From: an uncultured Saprospiraceae bacterium
GTDB taxonomy: Bacteria; Bacteroidota; Bacteroidia; Chitinophagales; Saprospiraceae
Direction: 5' to 3'
Assembly: GCA_964539805.1 (NCBI GenBank)
Contig: CAZIKN010000001.1
Coordinates: 73,782 to 137,781, forward strand
Length of the DNA stretch: 64,000 bases
Below the pieces are notes generated by a model, which was given only the letters and a program-made list of their open reading frames with translations, had not been told where the DNA came from and did no database searches. The position numbers were made by a program, and so were the translations under genes. Below, piece by piece: positions 17,106-64,000 of the stretch. The stretch's first letter is position 1, and each line of letters opens with the position of its first letter.

Positions 17106-17138
17106 TCCACCGTTCCAAAAACTCACCTTTTTTATATA

Positions 17139-20537: not shown

Positions 20538-20621
20538 CTTGACTAAAAATCAATGTTTTACAAAAAGAAATTCATTCTTGACTTAAAAAATAATCCATCC
20601 CGGATGCAACATATTTTAATT

Positions 20622-45570: not shown

Positions 45571-48500
45571 ATGCACCAGTTCAAGCTTCAGCATTTTTCA
45601 ATTCTTTTGCTGTATATTATCACCCCTATTGTTTTTTTTGCATGTCAAAATACAGCATCAAACGCTGATTTCTCACCTGCTAACCCGGTAAAAAAGGCAA
45701 CAGCTGCTACAACCCAGTTTGAGTTGCTTGCTCCCGAGCGTACAGGTATTCAATTTGTACCAAGTATAACAGATGAGTACCGTTATAATTTTATAGCAGA
45801 TCCATATATTTATAACGGTGGCGGCGTCGGGATACTGGATGTTAACAATGACGGCTTGCAAGATTTGTTCTTTACTGCCAGATTGCAGCCATGCCGGTTG
45901 TACCTGAACAAAGGGGGAATGCATTTTGAAGATATCAGCGAAAAAGCGGGCCTGAGCAAGCATATTGGCCTTAAAACGGGCATTGTCATAGTGGACATCA
46001 ATGCGGATGGCTGGCAGGATGTGTATGTTACGCGCACCTGGTTTGAGCCTATACCTGAAAGGCGTAACTTGCTGTTTATCAACAATAAGGATAATACTTT
46101 TAGCGAACAGGCTGCCGCCTATGGCTTAGATGACATTTCCGCATCCCAGCATGCCAATTTCTTTGATTACGATGGCGACGGGGATTTGGACTGTTATGTG
46201 TTGAACCATCCCACGGATTTTAAAACCATGAACAATTTGGATTACTCGGCAGGAAACGCAGCGGTTCAGCCTCCCAGAAACGAATATGAAAGTGATCGTT
46301 TGTTCCAAAACAATGGCCCTGCCCTACCCCACTTTACCGATATAAGCCAAAAGGCAGGTATATACAATCGCGCTTATGGTTTGAGTACTCTTTTCACCGA
46401 TTTTGATGCAGATGGCCGCTCCGAATTGTTCGTGGGCAATGATTTTGTAATGCCCGATTTCTTATACCAAAGTGGCGCTGACAATAAATTCATCAATTTA
46501 GCCACATTGGAAAGTAGAAATCTCTTTCGCCACAGTTCCAATCACACCATGGGCGCGGATGCCGCCGACCTTAACCGAGATGGTCTGCCAGATCTGGTCA
46601 CTTTGGATATGCTGGCCGAACCCTGGGGGCGCCGACAACGCCTTATGAGCACCATGCAACTGCCCCGTGACCGCCAAATGCAGGCACAGGGCTACGGACG
46701 ACAGGTGATGCGCAATGTATTGCAACTCTCTGATGGACCCGGAAATATGAGCGAACTGGGCCAGTTGGCCGGCATTGCGGCAACCGATTGGAGCTGGGCA
46801 CCCCTCATTGCTGATTTTGACAACGATGGCTGGCGGGACATATTTATTTCCAATGGCATCAAACGCGACCTGAACGACCTCGATTTTTTCCTGTACACAG
46901 CCGACAGCATCAACAAAACCGGAGGAGTGAATGAAAAACGCTTTGCCTCTTTTGAAGACTATGTCAAATTGATGCCCTCTCATCCCGTTCACAATTATAT
47001 GTTTCAAAACACAGGAAGCTTGCCCTACGCAGATGTTTCGGACAGTTGGGGATTTACCCAAAAGGGATTTAGCAACGGTGCAGCATACGCCGACTTAGAC
47101 AACGACGGCGATCTTGACCTGATTACCAACAATTTAGAAGCTGCCCCGAGCTTGTATGAAAATAAAGCGACGAACTTCAACACCAACCATTGGCTACAGA
47201 TAAAATGCAAGGGCACTGCACTCAACCCGATGGGGATTGGTGCAAAGATTCGGGTATATGTATCTGACAATGAAGGCAATATGAGCTCTATTTTCACACA
47301 GGACATGACCAATATTCGCGGGTTTTATTCCTCTGTGGAACCCATTTTCCAAATTGGATTAGGCTCGTTCTCCAGCGTAAAAAGGATTGAAATAGATTGG
47401 TTCGAAGGACGCTGCCAGATATTGGAAAATGTAGCAGCCAACCAACGTGTTACCTTGGATATCAGTGCCGCAAGCGCTGGCCATTGCCCCAACTCCAATT
47501 CAACACAAAAAACTGTTTTTCAGGATATTACACAACAATCCGGCCTGAATTTCAAACACATTGAAAATGAATTTGAAGATTTTGACCGTGAAAAACTGCT
47601 CCCCTATCGCCTTTCTCGCAGGGGGCCTTGCATGGCGCAGGGGGATTGGAACGGCGATGGTTTGGAAGATCTGTTTGTAGGAGGCGCATCAGGGCAAGCA
47701 GGTGGCTTGTTTTTACAAAAAAAAGAGGGTAACTTCCAAAAAACAAACCAAGTGGCGCTAGAAAAAGACAAGGCTCACGAAGATACCGGAGCTGTTGCTT
47801 TTGATGCCGACAAAGACGGCGATCTCGATCTTTTAGTACTCAGTGGCGGCAATGAAGCACCTGCCAATTCATCCGTTTATCAGGATCGGCTTTACCTAAA
47901 CGATGGAAAAGGCCAATTTATTCGTGCGGAAAAAAACCTTCCAACAGAAACAAAATCAGGCACTTGTGCTGCTGCACACGACTATGATGGCGATGGCTGG
48001 ACAGATTTATTTATTGGGAATGGTGCTGTACCGGGACGCTATCCCGAAGCCGCCGGAAATACCGTCTGGAAAAACGAACAAGGTGTTTTTAAGGATGTCA
48101 CCAACGCCGTTGCACCTGAATATGCCAAGGCAGGCTTGCTCACAGACCTCAGCGTAGGTGATTTTGACGGCGATGGAAGCCAGGAATTGGTTATCTGCGG
48201 GGATTGGCTGCCTATTGGTTTTTATACCATAAAAGAGGGTAAAATTCAGCCAAAACTGACCATTCCGCAATCTTCGGGCTGGTGGAATTGTCTCCTTGCG
48301 ACCGACATGGATGCTGATGGCGACCTCGATCTGGTGGCTGGCAATGAGGGCCGAAACACCCGCCTTCAAGCCTCCGCTGCTGCCCCGTTGCGCCTCTGGG
48401 CCAAGGATTTTGACCAGAACGCCAGTATAGACCCCATACTTTGTATAGCAGATCAAGGGAAATACCGCCCTGTGGCCCAAAGGGATTTGCTGGTGTCCCA

Positions 48501-48990
48501 AATGCCTTTTGTAAAGAAAAAATTTCCCCGTTACAATGCTTATGCCCAAGCCTCAATAACGGATATAGTGCCGGAAAAAGACTTGGAAAAGGCCATCTCT
48601 TTGTCAGCACAAACCTTTGACTCCCAATGGTTTGAAAACAAAGGGAATGGCTGGGAAGCCCATGTTTTCCCCTGGCAATTGCAGCTAGCCCCAATCCATG
48701 ACTGCTTAATGACCGATTTTAACCAAGACGGGAAAAAAGATTTGCTGGCCATCGGCAATGATTATGGCCCTGATATTGAAACTTATCGCCATGATGCCTT
48801 CAATGGTTGCTTGCTGCTGGGGCAGGGCAACGGATCGTTTTTGCCAATCCCTGCGGCACAAAGTGGTTTTTTGGCCAACAGGGATGCGCGGCGCATGGCT
48901 ATGATTACGGGAAAAGGTGGCGCAAGTTGGATCCTCGTAGGCAATAACAACGACAACATACAAATTTTTAAGCATAAATATGAAAATTGA
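45571..48990 (+). CDS. CRTAC1-like FG-GAP/VCBS repeat protein with UnbV/ASPIC domain (lipoprotein)
   Basis: Lipoprotein signal (..IVFFAC). Two groups of DxDxDG FG-GAP loops (DVNNDGLQDLF, DINADGWQDVY, ... DMDADGDLDLV) flank an ASPIC/UnbV-like segment (GIGAKIRVY....RIEIDW). Confidence 0.8.
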   Translation: MHQFKLQHFSILLLYIITPIVFFACQNTASNADFSPANPVKKATAATTQFELLAPERTGIQFVPSITDEYRYNFIADPYIYNGGGVGILDVNNDGLQDLFFTARLQPCRLYLNKGGMHFEDISEKAGLSKHIGLKTGIVIVDINADGWQDVYVTRTWFEPIPERRNLLFINNKDNTFSEQAAAYGLDDISASQHANFFDYDGDGDLDCYVLNHPTDFKTMNNLDYSAGNAAVQPPRNEYESDRLFQNNGPALPHFTDISQKAGIYNRAYGLSTLFTDFDADGRSELFVGNDFVMPDFLYQSGADNKFINLATLESRNLFRHSSNHTMGADAADLNRDGLPDLVTLDMLAEPWGRRQRLMSTMQLPRDRQMQAQGYGRQVMRNVLQLSDGPGNMSELGQLAGIAATDWSWAPLIADFDNDGWRDIFISNGIKRDLNDLDFFLYTADSINKTGGVNEKRFASFEDYVKLMPSHPVHNYMFQNTGSLPYADVSDSWGFTQKGFSNGAAYADLDNDGDLDLITNNLEAAPSLYENKATNFNTNHWLQIKCKGTALNPMGIGAKIRVYVSDNEGNMSSIFTQDMTNIRGFYSSVEPIFQIGLGSFSSVKRIEIDWFEGRCQILENVAANQRVTLDISAASAGHCPNSNSTQKTVFQDITQQSGLNFKHIENEFEDFDREKLLPYRLSRRGPCMAQGDWNGDGLEDLFVGGASGQAGGLFLQKKEGNFQKTNQVALEKDKAHEDTGAVAFDADKDGDLDLLVLSGGNEAPANSSVYQDRLYLNDGKGQFIRAEKNLPTETKSGTCAAAHDYDGDGWTDLFIGNGAVPGRYPEAAGNTVWKNEQGVFKDVTNAVAPEYAKAGLLTDLSVGDFDGDGSQELVICGDWLPIGFYTIKEGKIQPKLTIPQSSGWWNCLLATDMDADGDLDLVAGNEGRNTRLQASAAAPLRLWAKDFDQNASIDPILCIADQGKYRPVAQRDLLVSQMPFVKKKFPRYNAYAQASITDIVPEKDLEKAISLSAQTFDSQWFENKGNGWEAHVFPWQLQLAPIHDCLMTDFNQDGKKDLLAIGNDYGPDIETYRHDAFNGCLLLGQGNGSFLPIPAAQSGFLANRDARRMAMITGKGGASWILVGNNNDNIQIFKHKYEN

Positions 48991-50911: not shown

Positions 50912-51104
50912 TATTTGTGCGAAGATAAAGGTGCAATTTAAGCGCTAAATGCTGCACTTAAAACTTGATACAAGCCAAATAGGCGACCCAAAATCCCGTT
51001 CAGCCACACGTTTTTCCTATTCAGCCAAACTATTTTGCCCCCCCAAAAAAGGGCCTTCACCTTTGCGATACATTAAATTTCACCATCCATTCAACTTTTC
51101 GATT

Positions 51105-51518
51105 ATGACAAACCGATTCATGATTTTTGTGCTTTACTGTTTTCTCACCCTGCCTTTTATGGCCTGCAACAAAAACAACGGGAACCTCGTATCACCCAAT
51201 ACAGGCAAATGGAAGCTAACGTACTTCTGGGACAAAGAGGACGAAACCAACTACTACACCAATTACACTTTTGATTTTGGCAGCAACGGCGCTCTGACAG
51301 CAAGCAAAAATGGCCAAAACTGGGCCGGCACTTGGCAAACGGGCATTGATGACAGCAAAGAGAAAATCATCCTCGATTTTAACGGTTCCATCCCATCCGA
51401 ACTGGAAGAATTGGAAGAAGATTGGCTCATCATCAGCATGAAAGACAATTTCATGCACTTCGAACATACCAGCGGCGGCAACGGCGATACCGATGTGGTC
51501 AAATTTGAAAAAATATAG
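51105..51518 (+). CDS. small hypothetical lipoprotein (lipocalin-like pattern)
   Basis: Signal and lipobox MTNRFMIFVLYCFLTLPFMAC from the internal ATG at 51105. The protein is 137 aa with beta-rich patterning (GKWKLTYFWD...YTFDFGSNG). Confidence 0.5.
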   Translation: MTNRFMIFVLYCFLTLPFMACNKNNGNLVSPNTGKWKLTYFWDKEDETNYYTNYTFDFGSNGALTASKNGQNWAGTWQTGIDDSKEKIILDFNGSIPSELEELEEDWLIISMKDNFMHFEHTSGGNGDTDVVKFEKI

Positions 51519-51570
51519 GCACAGATGGGGAGACAGCTCAAGCAATGCTCCTTTTCATTTCCCGCTTTTC

Positions 51571-51602
51571 AGGGCGCGTTTCACCCAACGCGCCCTTTTT
51601 TT
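51571..51602 (+). terminator. rho-independent terminator
   Basis: AGGGCGCGTT, loop TCACCC, AACGCGCCCT, then TTTTTTT. Confidence 0.8.
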
Positions 51603-51966
51603 ACTCATTTATGTTAAAATTTATCACAATATAAAAGACCGTTTTTGGAAAATCAAAAAAAAGTGTCCAAAAAACGGCAAGCAATTTCAAGGTAAGGAAT
51701 AACCAAAAACATCAAAAATTACTTTTTTTAACTATGTTTCATCTATCTTCTTGGTATGCTTTTAACAAAACATTAAAATATATTAAAATTTGTATGCTAA
51801 AACCCGTCCAAAATTATTAATTTCAGGCAGCCCACCTTTGCACCGCAATGTTGCTACTGTTGCACATTAATCATCACCGGATGAAGCCCACAGCGTAAAT
51901 ATGTATAGTGCTTTTTACAAAGTGATCTCATCCCTAAACCGTTTCATTTTTTTAATACTTTTCATT

Positions 51967-52551
51967 ATGAAAAAATTATTTTTTGTTCCTTTCGTGCTTA
52001 TGTTACTGTTTGCTGCCTGTTCCAAAGACAGCAACATTATCCCCGCTAACGAAAATGTTTTGAATGCCCAGGAAGAGCACATTTCGTATGTTGTCCCTTC
52101 CACAGATGGTACCACGGATCGCAGCACCTGCAATTTGTATATGAAGATTGCTTTCCGCAAGACAGCAACTTACTCAGGGTTAGCGGCAGATCTTTTGCCT
52201 TGTAACCGCTTTTTTCGTGTAATGCGTAACAATGGAGGTGTCATTACCCAGATATTTCCTGCAAGCGGGTATTTCGGTTCAGGGACATCTACTTCAACGG
52301 GCAACAATTTGTCACTTGTAGTACCTAACGGCGGTCAATACTATGTAGAGTTTGACACTGTTGTTGACCCGACCAATACGTTCAACGAGAATACTTATGT
52401 GTTCTTCTCCGACAATATTCTGGTGCAGATTGACCCATTGACCCATGCTGATGTAAGTTGGTCACATCATGTCCAAATCGGTCCGGCTGCAACGCCTGAT
52501 GTTGCGTCATCCAACGCCAATGTGAGTGCTACTTGCGTGGTTACGCCGTAA
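51967..52551 (+). CDS. hypothetical lipoprotein
   Basis: MKKLFFVPFVLMLLFAAC lipobox from the internal ATG at 51967. I do not recognise a family. Confidence 0.5.
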   Translation: MKKLFFVPFVLMLLFAACSKDSNIIPANENVLNAQEEHISYVVPSTDGTTDRSTCNLYMKIAFRKTATYSGLAADLLPCNRFFRVMRNNGGVITQIFPASGYFGSGTSTSTGNNLSLVVPNGGQYYVEFDTVVDPTNTFNENTYVFFSDNILVQIDPLTHADVSWSHHVQIGPAATPDVASSNANVSATCVVTP

Positions 52552-52585: not shown

Positions 52586-52625
52586 GAAGGCCATGCCGTT
52601 TATACGGTGTGGCCTTCTTTTTTTG
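52586..52625 (+). terminator. rho-independent terminator
   Basis: GAAGGCCATGCCG, loop TTTATA, CGGTGTGGCCTTC (13-bp stem including two G-U pairs), then TTTTTTT. Confidence 0.75.
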
Positions 52626-52745
52626 CCTATTTCTTGCACAACGCAAATAGGCTGCGTTGCAGACGATATATATTGGCTCCTCATTAACGTACCTTTGTGG
52701 ATTGGTGCCTTCCAAGCACAATTACCTTAAAACAAACAACTAACG

Positions 52746-55700
52746 ATGAGAAGCCTGTTTTTTACCTGTTTATTTTTGGTGCATTTACCCGTTTTATACG
52801 CCCAGTTTGGGAACACGCCAATAATCATCAGCCGCAGCACCAATGCTTCACTCTTCAGCGTAACCCCTGCCGATCTGGATGATGACGGAGATACCGATAT
52901 GCTCGCCACCCATGAAAACGCTATTGTTTATTATGAAAATCTGGACGGAAAGGGCACTTTTTCAAATGACAGGGTTTGGATGGATGCGGATTTTCAGGTT
53001 TTTACCTCTATTTACCTCCGCACAGTGTTCCAGGATTTGGATGCCGATGGCCGGCTCGATGTGGCGGCTGACCGTTATTGGCGAAAAAACCTTGGGGGCG
53101 GCAACTTCGCACCACGCGCCACAGCCTTTAGCAGCAGCCTTGATGCGCTGTGTGATGTAAACGGCGACAACTTACCCGATGCCATTAACCATGATGCATC
53201 CAAAATATACTGGCAACGCAACCTCGGTAATGGCAGTTTTGCCGCAAGGGTCACCATCAAAAATGCCGCTTCTGCCAATATTTTTGAGGCCAAAGACCTC
53301 AATTTTGATGGCAAAATGGATTTTGTAGTCAATCAGATTAGTGGCTGCTTTTGGTATAAAAACCTGGGAACCAATCAGTTTGACACCCTTCGGCTGTTGT
53401 CGTTCCAGCCCAACAATATCAAGTTTTTGGACATTGACACTGATGGTAAATACGATGTTTTTTCCTCAGCAGGCAGCTCCATTTATTGGCACGAACTCGA
53501 AGCAGATGGAAAATTGTCCCTCATCCAAACCGTTACCACCACTCAATTTGACGGCGGCGCACTCCTCATAGGCGACATGAACGCTGACGGATTTGCTGAT
53601 ATTTTTGCAGGCAATACAGGCGGTTCCGCCAATCGGGCACAGTATTTTCCCTTCATTCCGGCTACTGGCAGATTCTCCGGCACACCAGTTAGCCACAACA
53701 CGTATCTGATTCGTCATGGTTGGGCGACATTCACCAATATTGACAATGACCCTGAGCCCGATATTTTGGCTGCTACCACCTATGGCTTTGGTTGGATGAA
53801 AAAATTATCGCCCACGCAGTTCTCTGCCGTGTTCAATATCACTCAAAATTTGGGCCTGCCAAAAGCAATCGAATCCTCCGACTTTGAAAACGATGGCGAT
53901 ATGGATCTGTTTACCAATGGTTTCGTGTTACGGCATTTGGGCAATGGTAACTACGCAGAAAAAGCCAGAACAACCTCTTCCGGTAGCCGTACTTTTTATG
54001 CTGACCTGGACGGTGATGAACGGAAAGACCTCGCCCGTCCCCTTGGCGATTCCATTTCATGGCGCAAAAACATGGGCAGCGGACAATACGGGCCTGCGGT
54101 TTTGCTGCCCGGCTTGGTTACCTCCTGCAAGCAGATCGGCGGCGGCGACCTCGACCAGGATGGGGATATTGACCTTTTTGCAGCCAATGGAACGGACGCC
54201 ATTGCCGTGAACGCGCGGTTTTATTGGTTTGAAAATGATGGAAAAGGTAATTTCACGGCCCATCTGCTCGAAACGGACATCCAACTCTGCTCAGGAGCCT
54301 TTTCATTAGATGTGAACGAAGATGGCAAATCAGACATGGTTTTGACCTTTTTCAACGGTAAGGCTACTCGTTGGTACCCCAATCTCGGCAATGGCAATTT
54401 TGACACTTACCGCCCACTTTTGGGCAATCTGCCCTCGCCGACAAATGTTAATCAATCAATGGTCACAGACCTGGATGCAGATGGGCGCCTTGACTATTTG
54501 TATTCCAACCAAATCACCACCCAAAGCAAGGTAGCCTGGTTCCGAAACCTCGGCAACTCAACTTTTGCGCCAGAGCAATCGCTCGTAACCATGAATCATC
54601 AAGGCTCCTATGCAACGCCTTATTTTGCTGTTTTTGATGCCACCTTGGATGGGCTGCCTGACCTCATTGTTTCTGACAACTATTGGAACCGTTTTCACTT
54701 GGTGCCCAGCGCGGGAGGCGGCAAGTTTGGAGCAGGCAAAGTGGTGTTTGATGCAGATGGTTATGGTGCTTTTTTTGGCGTGGCAGGGCATGATGTGGAC
54801 GGTGACGGGCGCCTGGATCTCGTATTTGGCAACCGCACGGAGAGCATTAACACACAGGGCTTTTACCAACTTTCCTGGCTGGGCAATCTGCACCCAAAGC
54901 CGGTGGTGCCATTTTCCGTACATGAAAAATCCGCCACCTGCTCAGATAATCAAACTCCCGCCAATGCCAATGATGATTTCCTGACTATTTCCCTAAAAAT
55001 CAAGGGATTGGATAATAGTTCCACCCGGTTTGTCGTGACCGACCTGAACAACAACACCGTGGTTGACACCTTTGATTATGACAAAAACATTTCTTTCGTT
55101 TTGCCTCCCGGAAGCGCAGGCGATGGAGTCCTGAAAAAATTCAAACTGCAAGACCTCTTGGTAAAAGATAGCTTTCTGGTACTGACGTTTGAAAGTGGCA
55201 GCCCTTGCTCGGTGTCTGCCCCAACCGAAATATCACTGCTAAACTTCCGGGTAGAATGCCGTGACAATAACACGCCCAACAACGCCAAAGATGACAAATT
55301 GGTGATATGGTTCACGCCACGGATCATCAATCCGCCTGTTGCAAGTACCCAATTCAACATCAACTCAAATCTTGGCTGGCCCATTGACACGGCAAAATTT
55401 AATCCGTCGGGTAAATATAATCAAGAAAACTATTTTGAACTGCCCGATGGCAGTGCAGCCGTTGAAGGCAAACTAATCCTGACTATACAGGATAGCAAAA
55501 ACTTGACAATAATCAAACATTTTCTCAGTAAAGTACCCGGTACTTGTTCTGGCGCCCCCCTGCCATGTCCTTTTTCTGTCAATTACCACAGCCAAACTGA
55601 AATTGACTCCTTTCCAATCAAATACCCGGGGTGTCGTGTGCTGGAAGGCGACCTCACCCTAAACGAGGTGTTGCCTGCGGCTGATGCACCAAGCATCGAA

Positions 55701-56687
55701 AACCTGTTGGGTTTTAAGGAAATCATAGAGCTGCGTGGTGACTTGAACATCAGCCACACCCATCTGAAAAACCTGAAGGGCCTTGATTCCCTGCGGCTCA
55801 TCGGACGCAGTTTATCTGTCTTGTTTTTTAACAGTCCCGAACTAAATTCACTAAATGGGCTTAACCAACTGCGCAGCATCGGGCAAGACTTGTGGCTTTC
55901 TGACACTATAAATACATTGAAGCATCTCGATGGCCTTGACCATTTAGACAGCATTGGCAGAGACCTGACGCTTTTCCAAATGAGGGGAATAAAAAACTTT
56001 AAAGGGATGGAAAAATTGAAAACTGCTGGTATCTGGACCTACCAATGCGATGCCCTTGAAAGCTTAGAGGGCCTTGAGAACCTGGATCAGGCCACAGCCA
56101 TTGCCATGCAGGACAATACCTCTTTGAAGACCCTGAAAGGCCTGGAAAACCTAAAAACAATATCGGGCGGCCCCCTATCTCTATTACTATTGGTCAAAAA
56201 CCCGCTGCTGGACGACATTTCGTCCCTGAATCACGACATGTTTATCGAGGCCGTACAGATAGAGGACAACCCCAAATTGAGCCTTTGTGCCGTAAAAGCC
56301 ATTTGCCAGTATTTGAAAAACCATGATCCGCAATTAACCACAATTACCGACAACCTGCTGGGCTGCAATTCAACTACAGAAATTTTAGATGCCTGCACGT
56401 CCTCGACTGCCGATTTTATTCAACATTTATCCTTGAAAATTTTCCCCAACCCTGTTTCCGATAACCAGCCGCTCCAAATCACTTTGGAAAATGATTTCAC
56501 AGGCACGGTCAAATTTGACCTGTTGAGCTTGGATGGGCGGGTGTTGGCGTCGTTTTGTGAAGAAAAAACAGCGCGGGTATTAAGCGTAAGCAGGGTTTTG
56601 AATCCTGCCTATGTTGATAGCGCGGCGTTTTTCCTGCGCGTTTCGGATGGGAAAAGATCGGCTACGCAATTAGTTATAAAAATGTAA
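52746..56687 (+). CDS. T9SS cargo paralog 1: 14 FG-GAP/VCBS loops + two Cys/TP/DD modules + L-domain/LRR-like solenoid + type-A CTD
   Basis: Signal peptide ..LPVLYAQ and 14 DxDxDG-type loops (DLDDDGDTDML ... DVDGDGRLDLV). The solenoid has ~23-aa repeats (LKGLDSLRLIGRSLSV.., LNGLNQLRSIGQDLWL.., LEGLENLDQATAIAMQ..). The C-terminal LKIFPNPVSDNQPLQITL....LLSLDGRVL....FFLRVSDGKRSATQLVIKM matches the Por secretion tail pattern. Confidence 0.8.
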   Translation: MRSLFFTCLFLVHLPVLYAQFGNTPIIISRSTNASLFSVTPADLDDDGDTDMLATHENAIVYYENLDGKGTFSNDRVWMDADFQVFTSIYLRTVFQDLDADGRLDVAADRYWRKNLGGGNFAPRATAFSSSLDALCDVNGDNLPDAINHDASKIYWQRNLGNGSFAARVTIKNAASANIFEAKDLNFDGKMDFVVNQISGCFWYKNLGTNQFDTLRLLSFQPNNIKFLDIDTDGKYDVFSSAGSSIYWHELEADGKLSLIQTVTTTQFDGGALLIGDMNADGFADIFAGNTGGSANRAQYFPFIPATGRFSGTPVSHNTYLIRHGWATFTNIDNDPEPDILAATTYGFGWMKKLSPTQFSAVFNITQNLGLPKAIESSDFENDGDMDLFTNGFVLRHLGNGNYAEKARTTSSGSRTFYADLDGDERKDLARPLGDSISWRKNMGSGQYGPAVLLPGLVTSCKQIGGGDLDQDGDIDLFAANGTDAIAVNARFYWFENDGKGNFTAHLLETDIQLCSGAFSLDVNEDGKSDMVLTFFNGKATRWYPNLGNGNFDTYRPLLGNLPSPTNVNQSMVTDLDADGRLDYLYSNQITTQSKVAWFRNLGNSTFAPEQSLVTMNHQGSYATPYFAVFDATLDGLPDLIVSDNYWNRFHLVPSAGGGKFGAGKVVFDADGYGAFFGVAGHDVDGDGRLDLVFGNRTESINTQGFYQLSWLGNLHPKPVVPFSVHEKSATCSDNQTPANANDDFLTISLKIKGLDNSSTRFVVTDLNNNTVVDTFDYDKNISFVLPPGSAGDGVLKKFKLQDLLVKDSFLVLTFESGSPCSVSAPTEISLLNFRVECRDNNTPNNAKDDKLVIWFTPRIINPPVASTQFNINSNLGWPIDTAKFNPSGKYNQENYFELPDGSAAVEGKLILTIQDSKNLTIIKHFLSKVPGTCSGAPLPCPFSVNYHSQTEIDSFPIKYPGCRVLEGDLTLNEVLPAADAPSIENLLGFKEIIELRGDLNISHTHLKNLKGLDSLRLIGRSLSVLFFNSPELNSLNGLNQLRSIGQDLWLSDTINTLKHLDGLDHLDSIGRDLTLFQMRGIKNFKGMEKLKTAGIWTYQCDALESLEGLENLDQATAIAMQDNTSLKTLKGLENLKTISGGPLSLLLLVKNPLLDDISSLNHDMFIEAVQIEDNPKLSLCAVKAICQYLKNHDPQLTTITDNLLGCNSTTEILDACTSSTADFIQHLSLKIFPNPVSDNQPLQITLENDFTGTVKFDLLSLDGRVLASFCEEKTARVLSVSRVLNPAYVDSAAFFLRVSDGKRSATQLVIKM

Positions 56688-56740
56688 GAAGTTGAAAAAC
56701 AAAAATTTAACACAATGCGAATATCAATTTGCCTATTCTT
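56349..56740 (+). repeat. junction block copy 1 (3' CTD coding + stop + 27-nt spacer + first 26 nt of the next gene)
   Basis: Hand alignment with 60495-60886 at a constant offset of 4146 nt. There are no indels and I count 7 mismatches in 392 positions. Confidence 0.9.
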
Positions 56741-59700
56741 GACCTGTTTTTTTGTTGTACCCATACAATATTTATACGCCCAATTCGGTAATACGCCCCA
56801 AGTACTCACCCAAAGCACCAACGCCAACCAACTCGGCATTTGGACCGCTGACCTTGATAGCGACGGAGATACCGACTTACTGAGTGCGCAATTAAACAGC
56901 TTGATCTGGTATAAAAATGACGGAACGGGCAACTTCTCGAATGACCTCGAGATCATGACCGCCGACATGTCCAATTCCATCGGTTTTCTTACCGGGGCTT
57001 TTGAAGATATCAACACTGACGGACTACCCGATCTTGTTTTCGACCGCGCCTGGCGGCGCAACCTTGGTAACGGTCAGTTCGCTCCACAGGCCACAATCCT
57101 GACCAATACGCTGGCTACATTGTGTGATGTAAACTCGGATGGATTGCCTGACGCCATCACCATAGAATATACCAAATTTTATTGGCAGCGCAACCTCGGC
57201 AATGGCAGCTTTGCCACCCGCCAAACGTTGCGCATAGTAAACGGTGCAGATGTTTACAACCTTAAAGTTGATTTGGATGCCGACGGGCGGCAGGACTTTT
57301 TTGCGCGGCACAACAATGCTTTTTTCTGGTATAAAAACAGGGGAAACAGCCAGTTTGACACCGTCCGGCTGCTCTCCACCTTCCCTGGGGCCGTGTCGGC
57401 CACCGATGTTGAAGGCAACGGCAAAACCGATCTTCTGCTTGGCACTGGCGGACAACTTTTGTGGTATGAATACGATGCAGCAGGGAAGCCAACGCTTCGG
57501 CAAACCTTAACTCAATATTACAGCGGAGAAATCAGTTTCGGCGACCTCGATGCCGACGGCGATCGAGACCTTTTTGTGGGCAGTGTGGGCACGGTGAACG
57601 GGCATCGAGCCAAATATTTCACCTTCGACTCTTCTAAAGGACTGTTTGATCTTGCACCGAAAAACCACAACATTTACCTGAACGACCACTATTACGCAGA
57701 GGTTCTGGATGTAAACGGCGATACCCAACCCGATATTTTGGTCGGTGATGTTGGCGGTGGCAGGCAGCTGGGTTGGTTGAAAAACCTCGCACCGGGCAGT
57801 TTCTCCAATTTTAACAACATCAACCGCAAATTCGACTTGCCCTACGAAATAGAAATTGCCGACCTCGAAAACGACGGCGACATGGATATTTTTACCGTAG
57901 GCATCGTGCTCGAAAACCTCGGCGGCGGCCAATATGCCGAAAAACGCCCCGCAACACCCAGTTCAGGCAGCCGCGCCTTCTCCGGTGACCTCGACGGTGA
58001 TGGGCTGAAAGATTTGGCTTTGCCGCTCGGAGACTCCATTTCCTGGCGAAAAGGCTTGGGCAATGGCCAATTTTCAGCACCCAAACTCCTCCCTGGCCTT
58101 GTCACCTCCTGTAAACAAGTAGGAGGAGCTGACCTCGACAATGACGGAGACCTCGATCTTTTTGCCGCCAACGGAACCGATGCGGTGGTGGCAAACGCCC
58201 GATTTTATTGGTTTGAAAATGATGGAAAAGGCAACTTCAAAGGACATTTGCTCGAAACAGGCCTTCAGTTTTGCGCCGCAGCCCTCGCTTTGGATGCCAA
58301 TGAGGACGGACTTATGGACATAGGGCTGTTGTTTTTCAATGGGTATTCACCACGTTTATACCTTAATTTAGGCAAAGGAAATTTCGCGCCGCCAACGGGT
58401 TTGTTTCCCGCCGGAACACCCTCACCAAATAATGTAAATCAGGATTTGCTGACGGATCTGGACGGTGACGGGCGGCTGGACTATGTTTATTGCACCCGCG
58501 ATTGGGGGCTAACCAAAGTGGCTTGGTACCAAAATTTGGGCGCGGCAGGCTTCAGCGCGGAAAAATCACTGGCGACCATGGCGCATCAAGCGGTTTATGC
58601 CGTGCCGCGTTTTTGTGTGTTTGATGCCAATTTGGATGGCATCACCGACGTGGTGGTAAGCGACAATTATTGGAACCGCTTTTTATTTGTCAAAGGTCTG
58701 GGCAACAGTGCATTTGCCTCTGCCACAACCGTTTATGATGAGCCTAACTTCGGAAATTTTTACGGCGTAGCCGCGCATGACGTTGACGGTGACGGGAAAT
58801 TGGACATCGTTTACGGCTCCGACACCGATTACCTTGGCAATTTCAATGGCTACAACCGTCTTTCGTGGCTGAAAAACCTGCATCCAACTCCTGCTCCAGG
58901 GCTGCAAATAGCCTTCAATTCAAGCAGTTGCTACGACAATGATACCCCGCTTGATGCCACCGACGACAGTCAGGTTTTGAATTTCAAAGTTGTACCTATT
59001 GGCAATGCAATGGCTTCCAACCAATATGTTTTGTTCAAAGAGAGCAGCCCGACACCGCTTGACACCTTTTCTTATAATGTCTTGACAAATTATGCCCTAT
59101 CACCTGGTTCGGCAGGTTTTTCCATTTTCGAGGCGTACTCGTTCCGTGATTTGGCAAATCCTGATTTGAAAAAAGTATTTTACCCGGTTAGCGTGGGCAA
59201 TTGTTCGCCCGCCGCACCGCCCGGAATCGGGATCCATACCTTAAAAACTTCCTGCGACGATACCGGAACCCCCGCTGATCCAACCGACGATCGTGTCCGA
59301 ATCGAGGTCAGCGCAGGGTTATACAACGGCTTGCCTGGACAAAATTATTACACAATCTATGCTAACCTCGGTTTACCAGCCAACATTTTTGACGAAACGA
59401 ACATCGGGTTTTACACTTTCCCGGAAGTGTTTTTGTTGCCAGAAGGCAGTGCCACCGTACCGGGGAAACTGCATTTGACCTTGCGCCACCAGTTGGACAC
59501 AAGCGTTATCAAACACTTGTTTATTGAAAATCCCGGAACCTGTGCCACTACACCGCCACCTTGTCCAAGAGATATTTTGTACACCAAACAAAGCCAGATT
59601 GACCTTTTCCCGCTGACTTACCCAACTTGTCGGATCATAGAAGGTTCGGTAATTTTAAAACAAAGTACGCTCCCGGGGGCTGTGCCAATCAAAAACCTGG

Positions 59701-60833
59701 ACGGTTTTGCAAACCTTGACATCATCCGGGGTAACCTGGAAATAGAAAGAACACAACTTCAAGATTTACAGGGTTTTCAACATTTGGACTCACTCGGCGG
59801 CAATTTTTTCTTGTATGAAAACCCGGGTTTGCAACGCTTGCAAGGCATAAATAGCCTAAAATCGGTAGGCGGCAGTATTTGGATAAGCAACGCGCCTATC
59901 TTGGAGAACCTAAATGGATTAGATGCCTTAAAGCATCTCGGAATCGGACTTAGCCTGCAAAGTCTGCCTGCTTTGAAGTCATTGGATGCCCTACAAAACC
60001 TGACCAATGTACCCGGTTCGCTTTGGATAACAGGCTGCGATGCCTTAGCTTCACTGACAGGCTTGCAACATTTGGAAAACATAGGTACGGCAGGCGATCC
60101 CTTTTCTGGCCAAATAGTTATTGCCGACTGTCCTTTGTTGGAAAATTTGACTGGTTTGGAAAAATTAAAATCCATCTCCGCACTGCTTTTGCAAAAAAAC
60201 ACTGGCTTGAAAAATCTCTCCGGAGTGGTCAATCTGGATACTATTCGCTTGGATATCAGGCTATTTGACAATCCTTTACTCGATAATATGGATGCGCTGG
60301 CAAGCATAAAATCAGCCAAATTGGAAAACCTTTTGCTCCGAAACAATGATGCGCTCACCAACCTCAACAGCCTCAAAAATATGGATTTTTCGAGGCTCCA
60401 AAATCTTGAAATCACCAATTCAGAGCTGCTTTCGGGCTGTGTACAGGCCAATATCTGTGCCTATCTGGGCAGCGGTGGCAAAGCAACCGTGAGCGACAAC
60501 CTGCTGGGCTGCAATTCAACTACAGAAATTTTAGATGCCTGCACGTCCTCGACTGCCGATTTTATTCAACATTTATCCTTGAAAATTTTCCCCAACCCTG
60601 TTTCCGATAACCAGCCGCTCCAAATCACTTTGGAAAATGATTTCACCGGCACGGTCAAATTTGACCTGTTGAGCTTGGATGGGCGGGTGTTGGCGTCGTT
60701 TGGGGAAGAAAAAACAGCGCGGGTATTAAACGTAAGCAGGGTTTTGAATCCTGCCTATGTTGATGGCGCGGCGTTTTTCCTGCGCGTTTCGGATGGAAAA
60801 AGATCGGCTACGCAATTAGTTATAAAAATGTAA
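56715..60833 (+). CDS. T9SS cargo paralog 2 (same architecture as paralog 1, longer solenoid)
   Basis: Signal peptide ..IQYLYAQ and 14 DxDxDG loops (DLDSDGDTDLL ... DVDGDGKLDIV). The solenoid runs from CRIIEGSVIL through ..LEITNSELLSGC. The type-A CTD is nearly identical to that of paralog 1. Confidence 0.8.
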   Translation: MRISICLFLTCFFVVPIQYLYAQFGNTPQVLTQSTNANQLGIWTADLDSDGDTDLLSAQLNSLIWYKNDGTGNFSNDLEIMTADMSNSIGFLTGAFEDINTDGLPDLVFDRAWRRNLGNGQFAPQATILTNTLATLCDVNSDGLPDAITIEYTKFYWQRNLGNGSFATRQTLRIVNGADVYNLKVDLDADGRQDFFARHNNAFFWYKNRGNSQFDTVRLLSTFPGAVSATDVEGNGKTDLLLGTGGQLLWYEYDAAGKPTLRQTLTQYYSGEISFGDLDADGDRDLFVGSVGTVNGHRAKYFTFDSSKGLFDLAPKNHNIYLNDHYYAEVLDVNGDTQPDILVGDVGGGRQLGWLKNLAPGSFSNFNNINRKFDLPYEIEIADLENDGDMDIFTVGIVLENLGGGQYAEKRPATPSSGSRAFSGDLDGDGLKDLALPLGDSISWRKGLGNGQFSAPKLLPGLVTSCKQVGGADLDNDGDLDLFAANGTDAVVANARFYWFENDGKGNFKGHLLETGLQFCAAALALDANEDGLMDIGLLFFNGYSPRLYLNLGKGNFAPPTGLFPAGTPSPNNVNQDLLTDLDGDGRLDYVYCTRDWGLTKVAWYQNLGAAGFSAEKSLATMAHQAVYAVPRFCVFDANLDGITDVVVSDNYWNRFLFVKGLGNSAFASATTVYDEPNFGNFYGVAAHDVDGDGKLDIVYGSDTDYLGNFNGYNRLSWLKNLHPTPAPGLQIAFNSSSCYDNDTPLDATDDSQVLNFKVVPIGNAMASNQYVLFKESSPTPLDTFSYNVLTNYALSPGSAGFSIFEAYSFRDLANPDLKKVFYPVSVGNCSPAAPPGIGIHTLKTSCDDTGTPADPTDDRVRIEVSAGLYNGLPGQNYYTIYANLGLPANIFDETNIGFYTFPEVFLLPEGSATVPGKLHLTLRHQLDTSVIKHLFIENPGTCATTPPPCPRDILYTKQSQIDLFPLTYPTCRIIEGSVILKQSTLPGAVPIKNLDGFANLDIIRGNLEIERTQLQDLQGFQHLDSLGGNFFLYENPGLQRLQGINSLKSVGGSIWISNAPILENLNGLDALKHLGIGLSLQSLPALKSLDALQNLTNVPGSLWITGCDALASLTGLQHLENIGTAGDPFSGQIVIADCPLLENLTGLEKLKSISALLLQKNTGLKNLSGVVNLDTIRLDIRLFDNPLLDNMDALASIKSAKLENLLLRNNDALTNLNSLKNMDFSRLQNLEITNSELLSGCVQANICAYLGSGGKATVSDNLLGCNSTTEILDACTSSTADFIQHLSLKIFPNPVSDNQPLQITLENDFTGTVKFDLLSLDGRVLASFGEEKTARVLNVSRVLNPAYVDGAAFFLRVSDGKRSATQLVIKM

Positions 60834-60886
60834 GAAGTTGAAAAACAAAAATTTAACACAATGCGAATATCAATTTGCCTATTTTT
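60495..60886 (+). repeat. junction block copy 2
   Basis: See 56349-56740. It includes the identical spacer GAAGTTGAAAAACAAAAATTTAACACA and the ATGCGAATATCAATTTGCCTATT start of the following gene. Confidence 0.9.
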
Positions 60887-63317
60887 ACTCATTAATTTTT
60901 GCACAAAAACTGAAGCCCAATTTTCGTCAACAATCCAAAACCTGACGGAGTACAGCAGCGCAAAAATGCACGGTATTTCGCTCCATGACCTCGATGCGGA
61001 CGGCGATTTGGACATCCTGGCGACGTTCCCGGACGGTGTGATCTTGTTGGAAAACAAAAGCGCAGCTAATTTTTCAGGTGAAAAAAATCAGTTTGTTTTT
61101 GATCTGCCGCTGACGGGCGGGCGCAGGCCGGCGCGTTTTGCCGATTTGGACGGCGATACACTGCCTGATTTGGCGGTCAATAAATCGTGGCGAAAAAATG
61201 TAGGCAAGGGACAATTCTCCACGCCTGTCGAAGTTTTTAAAAATCCGCTCGCCGCGCTATGCGATGTGGACGGCGACGGTTTTCCCGATGCAATCCACCA
61301 TAATGCAAGCAATCTTTTTTGGCAAAAAAACACCCAAAACGGCACGTTTTCTCCTTTTTCAACCAATATCGGTTCGGGTGCAAACTGGCAGCTTTGGGCC
61401 GTGGCAGACCTCAATTCCGATGGGTTTCAGGATTTAGTTTTGAGCCGGAATTTCCGGTTTTATTGGTACAAAAATTTGAAAAACGGCACTTTCGAGGGCA
61501 TTCAACTTGACGCAAGTTTCCCAAAAGAGGCCATCACCGAAGACTTGGACGGTGACGGGCGGGTGGATTTGCTGGCTGGTTTTGGCAATCAAATACGCTG
61601 GCTGAAATTCGATTCGCTTGGGGCCTGGACGCTGCATCAGGCCATTACGGTTTCGACATTTCAGGGCGGGCTGGCGGTCGGTGATTCGGACGGCGACGGC
61701 GACCGGGATTTGGTGGCCGGCGATTTAAGCGACAACTCTAACAGCCGTCTGCGCTGGTTTTTGATGCAGCCAAACGGACTGTTTTCGACCACCGCAACGG
61801 GCGGTATCGCGGCTTACCCTGATGGCTACAACCTGAATATTTGTGCGCTTGGCGACCTCAATGGGAACGGGGAAATTGACCTCGCTGTCGGCTCATCCAT
61901 CAAAGAAAATGGCGTATCTATCTCGTTTAATGGTTCTATTGCAGGGAGTTTTCAACCGTTGGTTTTGGCGGGCTTACCAATCGGAAACATCCGTCAAATA
62001 CATTCAGTGGACCTGGATTTGGACGGCGACAGCGACCTGGTGGCCGCCAATTTTCTGCTTGAACGTACTGGAATCGGGCAACTTGCTCCGCGCCGGCGAC
62101 TCAATATGCCCAACCAAAAAGTGCAATTTGCTGACCTTAACGGCGATACCTTGCCCGATGCAGTTTATCCCTTTGGCAACTCAATTGCATGGCAACGGAA
62201 CCTGGGAAATTTTCAATTTGACACCCAAATCAAACTCGACGAACTCATTTTTTTGGCTAAAGACGTGGGCATTTCCGACCTTGACAACGACGGCGACCTC
62301 GACCTTTTTGCGGCCTGTGGAACCGACGCGCCGAATGGAACCGCCGTTGCCCGTTGGTACAAAAACGATGGTGCAGGCCATTTTTCGGGATTCGAATTGG
62401 GGCAGGGCATCAAATTTTGTAATAATGTATTTCCACTTGATTTCAATGAAGATGGGCGAATGGATCTCGTTTTCATGCGCGGCGCGCCCGATTCTGACCT
62501 ATGGTTTAAAAATTGGGGCGGAGGAAATTTTTCGACGGCTCAAAATTTTTGGGCTGCCGGAACCCTCGAACCTGACGGCAATTTGAACCAAAAAATGCTC
62601 ATTGACCTCAACAGCGATGGCCGCTCCGATCTCATTTGCTGCACCCGCGATTACGGCATCGTGTCGGTTTATTGGTACCAGAATCTGGGCGATGGCGCGT
62701 TTTCAGACCGAAAAATCTTGCTGAACATCAGTCAGAATGCTTCAGCAGGCGGGCTGTTTTTCACTGTTTTGGATACGGATGGCGATAATAGATTGGATGT
62801 AGTGGTATCACAGGATTATGCCAGAAAAATTGTGTTTTTGAAAAACCTTGGCAACGGCGTTTTTGCGTCAGCGAAAGATGTTGTGGATGACCCGAGCGGT
62901 TTTAGTGGTTTTGATGCAATTTCAAATTACGATGTGGACGGCGACGGTCGGCTCGACCTCGTTTTTGGCAATGCCAACGCACAAAACGGGGGCAAAAACG
63001 CGCTTTCGTGGCTCGGTGGCACGGGTTTAAGTTTCGGTTTTGAACCTTTTCAAAACACTGATTTTCAAGTATTTCCGAATCCTGTTTCCGAAGGTCAGCC
63101 GCTCCAAATCACTTTGGAAAATGATTTCACCGGCACGGTCAAATTTGAGGTATTGAGCTTGGATGGGCGGGTGTTGGCGGCGTTTGGGGAAGAAAAAACA
63201 GCGCGGGTATTAAACGTAAGCAGGGTTTTGAATCCTGCCTATGTTGATCGCGCGGCGTTTTTCCTGCGCGTTTCGGATGGGAAAAGATCGGCTACGCGTT
63301 TGGTCATCACATATTAA
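60861..63317 (+). CDS. T9SS cargo paralog 3: 14 FG-GAP/VCBS loops joined directly to the type-A CTD (no solenoid)
   Basis: The signal peptide MRISICLFLL.. shares its first 8 codons with paralog 2. There are 14 DxDxDG loops (DLDADGDLDIL ... DVDGDGRLDLV). The CTD is FQVFPNPVSEGQPLQITLENDFTGTVKFEVLSLDGRVL...RLVITY. Confidence 0.8.
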   Translation: MRISICLFLLINFCTKTEAQFSSTIQNLTEYSSAKMHGISLHDLDADGDLDILATFPDGVILLENKSAANFSGEKNQFVFDLPLTGGRRPARFADLDGDTLPDLAVNKSWRKNVGKGQFSTPVEVFKNPLAALCDVDGDGFPDAIHHNASNLFWQKNTQNGTFSPFSTNIGSGANWQLWAVADLNSDGFQDLVLSRNFRFYWYKNLKNGTFEGIQLDASFPKEAITEDLDGDGRVDLLAGFGNQIRWLKFDSLGAWTLHQAITVSTFQGGLAVGDSDGDGDRDLVAGDLSDNSNSRLRWFLMQPNGLFSTTATGGIAAYPDGYNLNICALGDLNGNGEIDLAVGSSIKENGVSISFNGSIAGSFQPLVLAGLPIGNIRQIHSVDLDLDGDSDLVAANFLLERTGIGQLAPRRRLNMPNQKVQFADLNGDTLPDAVYPFGNSIAWQRNLGNFQFDTQIKLDELIFLAKDVGISDLDNDGDLDLFAACGTDAPNGTAVARWYKNDGAGHFSGFELGQGIKFCNNVFPLDFNEDGRMDLVFMRGAPDSDLWFKNWGGGNFSTAQNFWAAGTLEPDGNLNQKMLIDLNSDGRSDLICCTRDYGIVSVYWYQNLGDGAFSDRKILLNISQNASAGGLFFTVLDTDGDNRLDVVVSQDYARKIVFLKNLGNGVFASAKDVVDDPSGFSGFDAISNYDVDGDGRLDLVFGNANAQNGGKNALSWLGGTGLSFGFEPFQNTDFQVFPNPVSEGQPLQITLENDFTGTVKFEVLSLDGRVLAAFGEEKTARVLNVSRVLNPAYVDRAAFFLRVSDGKRSATRLVITY
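63096..63297 (+). repeat. partial third copy of the CTD block
   Basis: Aligns without indels to 60612-60813 (offset 2484) with a handful of mismatches. Similarity stops before the stop codon, so this copy lacks the spacer and signal-peptide part. Confidence 0.85.
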
Positions 63318-63356: not shown

Positions 63357-64000
63357 ATGAGGTATTTATTTTACTTTTTGGCAGTATTTTCATTATCTAC
63401 TCCATCACTGCAAGCACAGTATTGCCACCCGAAGGACTCGCTCGAACTTGTCAAATTTTACATTGCCGTAAACGGTCAAAACTCAACGCTAAACTGGAAA
63501 CTTTCCCAACCGGTGAGCAGCTGGGAATGGGTTGCATTGACCCCTCAAGGCCGTGTGAAATCGCTTTGGCTTATCGGCAAAAACTTGAGCGGCGAATTGC
63601 CTGCCGACCTCAATTTACCTAATTTGACCTTGTTGGGATTGGGAAACAACAAGATTGGGGGAACACTCCCAAAGTTTGAATTATTGCCTAACCTACGGGA
63701 GTTGGAACTGCCGAACAACCGACTGACAGGCAATATACCTAATTATAATCAACCCTTTTTGCAAGACCTTGAACTGAACCATAACCAACTAACGGGCAAC
63801 ATCCCAAAATTCAAGCTTCCCTTTTTGATTTTCCTCTCTCTTAACCACAACCAACTGACGGGCGAAATCCCAGCCTTTGATACGCCTTTGCTCGGCGGAC
63901 TGCATTTGGAACACAACCAACTGACGGGCAGCATTCCTGATTTCCAAAATATGCCCAAACTGCAATGGCTGGTAGGTGACTTTAATCAGTTGAGCGGCAA
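63357..64000 (+). CDS. secreted leucine-rich repeat protein with plant-type (LxxLxLxxNxLtGxIP) repeats, 3' end outside window
   Basis: Not in the ORF track because there is no stop within the window. My translation from ATG 63357 starts with the signal peptide and cap: MRYLFYFLAVFSLSTPSLQAQ YCHPKDSLELVKFYIAVNGQNSTLNWKLSQPVSSWEWVALTPQGRVKSLWLIGKNLSGELP. LRR units of 23-24 aa follow: ..LELPNNRLTGNIP.., ..LELNHNQLTGNIP.., ..LSLNHNQLTGEIP.., ..LHLEHNQLTGSIP... Confidence 0.8.
   Translation, partial: MRYLFYFLAVFSLSTPSLQAQYCHPKDSLELVKFYIAVNGQNSTLNWKLSQPVSSWEWVALTPQGRVKSLWLIGKNLSGELPADLNLPNLTLLGLGNNKIGGTLPKFELLPNLRELELPNNRLTGNIPNYNQPFLQDLELNHNQLTGNIPKFKLPFLIFLSLNHNQLTGEIPAFDTPLLGGLHLEHNQLTGSIPDFQNMPKLQWLVGDFNQLSG

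Follow-up and report, generated by a model that had tools for sequence, protein, structure and literature searches.

A stretch of 64,000 nucleotides (nt) from an uncultured Saprospiraceae bacterium (assembly GCA_964539805.1, contig CAZIKN010000001.1, positions 73,782 to 137,781 of the forward strand; hereafter the window) carries, at positions 52746-63317, a tandem array of three paralogous genes encoding proteins with a signal peptide, a head of two calcium-loop β-propellers and a C-terminal domain (CTD) of the type used as a sorting tag by the type IX secretion system (T9SS). With moderate confidence, we consider the array a probable operon of non-enzymatic, T9SS-exported surface proteins of lectin-like or adhesin-like character. 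Our confidence is higher for two parts of this picture, the architecture of the proteins and a tract of gene conversion that covers the 3' ends of the genes, than for the overall mechanism. An earlier note on the window, made from the sequence alone, had singled out the same array as a family of T9SS cargo, and its claims are taken up below alongside the results that bear on them.

The three genes are co-directional open reading frames (ORFs) on the + strand, located at 52746-56687, 56715-60833 and 60861-63317, and encode proteins of 1313, 1372 and 818 amino acids (aa), here termed P1, P2 and P3. The gene 1/2 and gene 2/3 spacers are both 27 nt long and have the same sequence, GAAGTTGAAAAACAAAAATTTAACACA; the same-strand layout with 27-nt gaps reported in the earlier note was exact to the coordinate, and the tandem paralogy of the genes was borne out. 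P1, described from the ORF call, Pfam and NCBIfam searches, its translation and a family alignment, starts with a signal peptide ending in LYA ahead of QF, followed by 14 FG-GAP blades (aa ~24-715), two immunoglobulin (Ig)-like modules, A and B (aa ~716-935), a receptor-L-domain/leucine-rich-repeat (LRR) solenoid (aa ~938-1200), a Cys cap with a linker, and a type-A CTD (aa 1232-1313). P2, described from Pfam, an AlphaFold2 model of aa 700-1372 and a profile match to ErbB2 L domains, has the architecture of P1 with a longer solenoid of ~12 turns (aa 946-1262). P3, described from Pfam, AlphaFold2 and Foldseek, consists of a signal peptide, 14 FG-GAP blades and a type-A CTD attached through an 18-aa linker, with neither modules nor solenoid. 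The domain anatomy that had been proposed, namely a double FG-GAP propeller, two Cys/TP/DD β-sandwich modules, an L-domain-like solenoid and a T9SS type-A CTD, was recovered by Pfam, AlphaFold2 and profile searches of the Protein Data Bank (PDB). The proposed restriction of modules and solenoid to the first two paralogs also held, with Recep_L_domain above the Pfam threshold in P1 and P2 and absent from P3, and blade 14 of P3 is indeed joined directly to the CTD, via the 18-aa linker, which is modelled at low confidence.

The head is the part common to all three proteins. Pfam FG-GAP_3 matched P1, P2 and P3 with E = 4.7e-48, 2.4e-58 and 2e-56, respectively, in 7-10 separately scored stretches, and PF01839 was likewise above cutoff in the array proteins. 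A count of exactly 14 DxDxDG loops per protein had been put forward; the number 14 stands for blades with a degenerate DxDxDGxxD-like loop, spaced 40-57 aa apart, but strict DxDxDG motifs number no more than 6, 7 and 7 in P1, P2 and P3. The 13th loop of P1 (DATLDGLPD, aa 629) was missed by the regular expression and read directly from the translation. The 14 Ca2+-type loops correspond to two seven-bladed propellers per protein, and Ca2+ binding is predicted. An AlphaFold2 model of P3 built from a 32-sequence family alignment (mean pLDDT, the per-residue confidence score, 85.9; pTM, the predicted template-modelling score, 0.76) is all-β, with ~14 four-stranded blades followed by a C-terminal sandwich. 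When the P3 head was compared with the PDB by Foldseek, it matched the double propellers BT4673, Elp2 and DDB1, and the highest sequence identity (18-20%) was to the FG-GAP lectins PVL (2bwm) and AAL2 (4tqm); propellers of TcB and UmbA4 (9oee) were also among the matches. A phmmer search of P2 against PDB sequences gave no match. FG-GAP/VCBS propellers with Ca2+ loops are known to bind sugars or protein ligands (PMC8023676), and by analogy the head may form a multivalent lectin-like or integrin-like ligand-binding surface.

Between head and CTD, P1 and P2 carry additional domains. The AlphaFold2 model of P2 aa 700-1372 (pLDDT 85.6) shows two seven-stranded β-sandwich modules, then a regular solenoid of ~12 turns (pLDDT > 90) and, after a short linker with a Cys cap, a terminal β-sandwich. 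The Recep_L_domain family (PF01030; Pfam cutoff 21.8 bits) matched the start of the solenoid with 35.5 bits in P1 (aa 962-1021) and 42.4 bits in P2 (aa 972-1046), and P2 also gave a Pfam match to LRR_EndoS. A profile of the solenoid family retrieved ErbB2 L1/L3 (E = 3.4e-6) and IGF1R L2 (E = 3e-3) from the PDB, while its later repeats retrieved ordinary LRR proteins (dynein LC1, internalins). Judged from these matches, 'receptor-L-domain-like' is a fair description of the first ~100 solenoid residues, and the C-terminal two-thirds would be better called LRR-like. The ~105-aa Cys/TP/DD modules (window 54891-55553 in gene 1 and 58881-59549 in gene 2) have no match in Pfam or NCBIfam. A profile of the module found 571 representative protein clusters, 269 of them at E ≤ 1e-10 (proteins P0129-P0269 among those collected), with up to 27 copies in tandem in one 5677-aa protein; the module mostly accompanies T9SS CTDs, and the module-bearing partner proteins sampled end in CHU_C or Por_Secre_tail domains. 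A homolog search with the module segment alone returned almost nothing, short fragments only. The module is a candidate new domain family, which appears to be a widespread unannotated stalk domain of T9SS cargo.

Signals for export are found at both ends of each protein. The earlier note assigned a signal peptide to each, and each indeed has a hydrophobic leader ending in A ahead of QF; the resulting A-Q-F is invariant across 32 family members, in keeping with the Bacteroidetes Q-rule, which predicts Gln right after the cleavage site of signal peptidase I substrates (PMC5837995). The type-A sorting domain claimed for each gene is accepted as well, in the form of a divergent subtype that scores near or below the model cutoffs. 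The isolated CTD of P2 reached 23.4 bits against TIGR04183, just above the cutoff of 23, 21/24 family CTDs matched this model at E ≤ 0.01, and some homologs carry a precomputed PF18962 annotation. In the AlphaFold2 models, the C-terminal ~80 residues of P2 and P3 (pLDDT 65-86) form a β-sandwich of six to seven strands, and an Ig-like β-sandwich is the topology expected of T9SS CTDs (PMC11285876); a CTD profile found no match in the PDB. Signs of a host T9SS within the window are a PorP/SprF gene (16026-17105) and an SprB-repeat protein with a CHU_C type-B CTD (20553-25460), and the core genes sprA, porV and porU do not occur within the 64 kb. The PorP/SprF gene and the SprB-repeat/PKD gene (1635 aa) lie together with a gene for a 1132-aa TPR protein at 16026-25460, in what looks like a gliding-type adhesin cluster with a cognate PorP-like partner.

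The junctions between the genes are covered by a near-identical direct repeat. Its first copy, of 390 nt (56348-56737, + strand), takes in the linker, CTD and stop codon that make up the final 340 nt of gene 1, runs through the 27-nt spacer and ends 23 nt into gene 2. The second, also of 390 nt (60494-60883, + strand), spans the gene 2/gene 3 junction and differs from the first by 6 mismatches, and at both edges the alignment drops sharply to unaligned sequence. A third copy of ~202 nt, limited to the CTD of gene 3 (63096-63297, + strand), has 6 mismatches to the second copy and is 97% identical to 60612-60813. For P1 against P2, the proportion of synonymous differences (pS) falls to 0.00 (linker) and 0.043 (CTD), compared with ~0.75-0.85 in the gene bodies, where synonymous sites between paralogs are saturated; for the CTD of gene 3 against those of P1 and P2 it is 0.11-0.18. 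These comparisons show recent gene conversion confined to the linker, the CTD, the spacer and the start of the next gene. Purifying selection was ruled out as the source of the CTD identity because this identity extends to synonymous sites and to the non-coding spacer. The propellers of P1, P2 and P3 are mutually 35-53% identical, and each has a closer relative elsewhere (P1 and P0016, 80%; P2 and P0006, 87%; P3 and P0045, 71%). The three genes are thus old and diverged paralogs, and not recent duplicates; for each of them, other Saprospiraceae assemblies hold orthologs closer than its neighbours in the array. Recent whole-gene duplication was ruled out on the same grounds, namely the saturated gene bodies and the closer orthologs elsewhere.

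Comparison with the loci of relatives (L001 to L006 and others) placed the conversion in a wider setting. Among the 41 family CTDs compared, those of the window paralogs are mutual nearest neighbours, with identities of 96%, 88% and 86%, against 49-63% between cross-genome orthologs and a median of 53% over all family pairs. CTDs group partly by genome, and propellers group by ortholog in other assemblies. Homogenisation is weaker in L004 (83% identity for its FG-GAP pair) and L001 (75-76%), and the CTDs of four different cargo genes within L004 have a pS of 0.24-0.40, compared with 0.47-0.62 between L004 and the window. The effect is absent from the FG-GAP pair of L003 and from a 10371-bp contig, which suggests that conversion is episodic. 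T9SS CTDs are cleaved by PorU and are exchangeable between cargoes within a species but incompatible between species (PMC11285876), so that exchanging tags within one genome would be expected to do no harm, and may even be favoured. In the literature searched, no paper was found on T9SS CTDs together with gene conversion, nor on FG-GAP together with T9SS.

The propeller calls for a different explanation. The mosaic profile of P1/P2 identity described in the earlier note was recovered, at 33-60% of aa in blades 1-7, 67-82% around aa 400-500, ~30% in the modules and solenoid, and 94-98% in the last ~110 aa. That note explained it by a diversifying receptor/adhesin cassette family in which ongoing recombination between paralogs keeps blades 8-12 and the CTD partly homogeneous, an account that can draw on the mosaic itself, on the real conversion at the 3' end, on the variation of cassette types among relatives, and on an identical 29-nt run at 54219-54247 and 58203-58231, which is genuine, lies in blade 10 and is mildly unusual (P = 0.014, codon resampling). 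Propeller 2, however, is saturated at synonymous sites (pS 0.745), the identical-codon fraction among conserved residues at aa 376-525 (0.40-0.57) equals the background elsewhere in the genes, and beyond the 29-nt run, identical stretches reach only 12-14 nt. Across 32 family members, conservation is highest in blades 9-11, blade 10 having a mean pairwise identity of 61% compared with 29-51% for the other blades; the conserved residues of blades 9-11 include PLGDSISWRK, LLPGLVTSCKQ, DLFAANGTDA and FYWFENDGKGNF. Between orthologs, too, propeller 2 is better conserved than propeller 1 (e.g. 89% vs 79% and 71% vs 46%). Saturated synonymous sites, codon identity at background and family-wide conservation of blades 9-11 together argue that the high identity in blades 8-12 reflects purifying selection or functional constraint, and not recombination. 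The word 'diversifying' is not supported either, as the ratio of non-synonymous to synonymous rates (dN/dS) between orthologs is 0.06-0.30 region-wide, with no gross sign of diversifying selection and no regional sign of a positive one. Homogenisation by recombination is retained for the 3' linker, the CTD, the spacer and the start of the next gene, and is abandoned for blades 8-12; the recombining-cassette account is largely refuted for the propeller and, as an explanation of the array, is quite unlikely.

Several observations weigh against an operon of exported binding proteins, and some of them open further alternatives. The full-length proteins scored only 17.3-19.2 bits against TIGR04183 (cutoff 23) and had no match to PF18962 at E ≤ 0.01, which is why the CTD is taken to be a divergent subtype. 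Foldseek gave weak and mixed matches for the multi-domain model of the P2 C-terminal half (TM 0.1-0.3; tandem Ig domains such as intimin D00-D0 and LILR, LRRs, and insulin receptor/IGF1R), their weakness arising because the model has several domains. The putative promoter, TACCTTTG at 52690-52697 (+ strand), 49 nt upstream of the ATG of gene 1, matches the Bacteroidota -7 promoter consensus TAnnTTTG, but counts as weak evidence, since this motif occurs across the window at chance frequency. The contig is metagenome-assembled, and an exact 153-nt repeat inside the conversion tract (56348-56500), longer than usual k-mers, could have caused a misjoin; if the near-identical junctions were a short-read assembly artefact at a shared CTD repeat, neither the gene order nor the tandem array would be real. 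We regard such an artefact as very improbable, as the assembler resolved the copies as distinct, with 6 differing positions between the two of 390 nt and more in the third, independent assemblies of relatives contain like tight tandem arrays with spacers of 14-54 nt, the order of P3 followed by an LRR gene is mirrored in L003 and L004, and array proteins are recorded on two contigs. Binding is also not the only role open to FG-GAP propellers, which occur in enzymes (PL11 rhamnogalacturonan lyase) and toxins (TcB) as well. The array proteins might then be secreted enzymes or toxin components, with the propellers as catalytic (PL11-like) or gating (TcB-like) scaffolds and the solenoid as a carbohydrate-binding or targeting module. 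Saprospiraceae are polymer degraders, weak Pfam matches to TcdB_toxin_midN were seen, and TcB chains are among the Foldseek matches noted above. In addition, RGL11 lyases belong to the VCBS supercluster (PMC8023676). On the other side, Pfam and NCBIfam identified no catalytic-domain family either in P1, P2 and P3 or in the cluster partners with this CTD (LRR, PQQ-like propeller, DUF5122 with LamG, and solenoid-only proteins), the TcdB match is below threshold and covers the FG-GAP repeats only, and the closest sequence-similar structures are the lectins PVL and AAL2. An enzymatic or toxin role is unlikely on this balance, and the operon of lectin-like or adhesin-like surface proteins remains the preferred interpretation.

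The genes belong to a family centred on Saprospiraceae. The nearest homologs with source names, up to 75% identical, come from Saprospiraceae metagenome-assembled genomes, and homologs are named in NCBI as 'VCBS repeat-containing protein', 'FG-GAP-like repeat-containing protein' or 'T9SS type A sorting domain-containing protein'. All family types have the two-propeller head and the CTD, and differ in the middle region, which comprises two modules and a solenoid (~1310-1370 aa in total length), two modules only (~1035 aa), nothing (~815 aa), or a solenoid with an extra region (~1323 aa). The loci of relatives vary in copy number, type, order and flanking genes: L001 has two family genes; the gene set of L003, given by product length or type, is 1319 aa, LRR, 501 aa and 807 aa; that of L004 is 815 aa, 1035 aa, LRR, 1197 aa and 846 aa; that of L005 is 1312 aa, solenoid-only and LRR; and L006 has a single copy. 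The comparison across relatives suggested in the earlier note thus found that copy number and cassette composition both vary. At L088 (10001-19177; GCA_016706365.1), two family genes appear to be split by frameshifts into 920+399+219 aa and 424+941 aa, and are either pseudogenes or the product of assembly indel errors. A scan of genome contigs with the family alignment, which made use of generic FG-GAP loop patterns only, found no close relatives, the hits being unrelated FG-GAP proteins at 21-32% identity. Within the window, a separate 1139-aa protein with FG-GAP_3 and UnbV_ASPIC domains (CRTAC1-like) is encoded at 45571-48990, 3.7 kb upstream of the array; it has no family CTD and falls outside the paralog family.

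Downstream of the array, 39 nt after gene 3, begins a gene for a plant-type (24-residue) LRR protein (63357-64000, + strand), which is cut by the end of the window. Its product has a plant-like N-terminal cap (CHPxDSLELVKFY..NGxN..W) followed by 24-residue repeats of the plant-specific type, and the portion within the window is 85% identical to L004_LRR562, whose protein ends in the family CTD subtype. The plant-type LRR gene pointed out in the earlier note is accordingly present, and is moreover a recurrent partner of arrays in relatives, FG-GAP genes being followed by LRR genes in L003 and L004 as well; the unit probably includes it as a fourth gene. The CTD subtype is carried by several non-homologous neighbours, its cargo range having been sampled from neighbouring genes only: L004_LRR562, L003_LRR537, the unannotated 501-aa protein, a PQQ-like propeller, a DUF5122 + Laminin_G (LamG) protein and a solenoid-only protein (L003 13995-17128; L004 13144-14832 and 18805-21345; L005 13962-15266; L087 7048-9276). 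Other neighbours in these loci have ordinary, unrelated type-A CTDs. A metagenome scan with a tightened CTD alignment returned 2 loci only, and a homolog search with the CTD profile almost nothing, short fragments only. As the subtype is common to non-homologous binding proteins encoded side by side and evolves in concert within a genome, it would fit a dedicated sorting or anchoring route, with a cognate T9SS accessory partner comparable to PorP/SprF for type-B CTDs, or co-assembly into one multi-component adhesive surface structure; either idea is speculative and, in our estimate, unlikely to be correct.

The layout of the locus suggests how the genes may be transcribed. A terminator-like hairpin with a 14-bp stem and a T run (52586-52617, + strand) closes the upstream gene, and the array accordingly appears to start a new transcription unit. 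The terminator scan found no terminator-like site in the 27-, 27- and 39-nt gaps between P1, P2, P3 and the LRR gene, and these four genes are likely co-transcribed. An invertible promoter or phase-variation switch upstream of the array was ruled out, the sole notable inverted repeat being the terminator. Directly upstream, at 50949-52551, lie two small ORFs (189 and 216 aa), the second of which ends at this strong terminator; they had no Pfam match and sub-threshold NCBIfam matches only. Farther upstream, on the - strand (43001-44716), is a gene for a B12-binding radical SAM protein with DUF4080, which is unrelated to the array.

The combined results suggest a model of how the array may work, in which the export steps follow established T9SS biology. 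Each protein would be exported by Sec, with the signal peptide cut before the invariant Gln, and the T9SS would then recognise the C-terminal type-A CTD, which is removed, leaving a mature protein that is either released or anchored in the outer membrane via its new C-terminus. At the distal N-terminal end, the two seven-bladed Ca2+-loop propellers would present a conserved site in blades 9-11 and a more variable propeller 1. In the products of genes 1 and 2, the head may be held on a stalk of two Ig-like modules, a module type also found in tandem in giant T9SS cargo, and the receptor-L-domain/LRR solenoid could offer a second binding surface; in that of gene 3, the head would sit directly on the anchor, such that the proteins would differ in reach. 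Conversion at the 3' end may be tolerated since the CTD serves as an export tag that is cleaved off, matched to the species and interchangeable among cargoes, and the 390-nt direct repeats could act as substrates for unequal crossing-over, leading to the copy-number and cassette differences seen in relatives.

T9SS cargo with FG-GAP/VCBS repeats is very common in environmental Bacteroidota and almost wholly uncharacterised. Saprospiraceae attach to other bacteria, algae and flocs, which makes the array family a reasonable candidate for attachment molecules. The family also provides a natural length series, with the same head lacking a stalk, carried by a stalk only (in relatives) or carried by a stalk with a solenoid, that could be used to probe reach and valency in adhesion. 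The findings overturn no current views, and the array represents a fairly ordinary adhesin-like gene family of bacteria. The points worth keeping are gene conversion restricted to a cleaved secretion tag, of which the array is a clean case that fits the interchangeability of CTDs within a species; the occurrence of a single tag subtype on neighbouring cargo proteins that are unrelated; and the Ig-like stalk module, which is widespread in giant T9SS proteins and lacks a Pfam or NCBIfam match.

In relation to known systems, the array is a variant within the multi-domain T9SS surface binding proteins that are already named generically as VCBS or FG-GAP repeat proteins. With generic Bacteroidota cargo of this kind it has in common the signal peptide, the multiple FG-GAP_3 repeats and the C-terminal type-A sorting domain. 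It differs in that, among the best 120 matches, two Ig-like modules combined with a Recep_L_domain/LRR solenoid were found only in its own Saprospiraceae-centred family, and in that its divergent CTD subtype scores close to or under the model cutoffs. PVL and AAL2 resemble the array head in having a seven-bladed FG-GAP propeller with DxDxDG-type Ca2+ loops (Foldseek probability 1.00), a likeness of fold and of 18-20% sequence identity; the two lectins are single soluble propellers, whereas the array proteins are two fused propellers on a stalk with a T9SS tag. The L domains of ErbB and the insulin receptor share with P1 and P2 the above-threshold PF01030 match and a domain start of the form Cys-x-x-(I/V)-x-G-x-(L/V), but the array proteins lack the furin-like Cys-rich domain, the kinase and the eukaryotic context of these receptors, and the remainder of their solenoid scores as ordinary 22-24-residue LRRs (as in dynein LC1, internalins and LRR_EndoS), unlike receptor L domains. 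This likeness is one of fold and repeat type, and not homology to a receptor with a known ligand.

Two groups of T9SS substrates also bear comparison with the array. Saprospiraceae use T9SS-exported adhesins for cell contact, and the GhpA grappling hooks and SprB, T9SS substrates in the same bacterial family, likewise place a distal head on an Ig-like stalk for cell-to-cell contact (bioRxiv 10.1101/2024.01.29.577165). GhpA, however, is a heptamer-forming protein of more than 5000 aa with PorP/PorE homologues as partners, in contrast to array proteins of 0.8-1.4 thousand aa with propeller heads, type-A CTDs and no adjacent PorP. Kinship with the grappling hooks was rejected, as no shared domains or sequence relationship were found. 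The 3' end of the array has a parallel in Porphyromonas gingivalis, where the gingipain and haemagglutinin genes rgpA, kgp and hagA recombine in their shared C-terminal regions. In both systems, paralogous surface or secreted T9SS cargo combines near-identical 3' segments with diverged bodies. The P. gingivalis genes are dispersed and have chiefly adhesin domains in common, whereas in the array the shared tract consists of the export tag, the spacer and the start of the next gene, in tight tandem, and the tag subtype is found on non-homologous neighbours as well.

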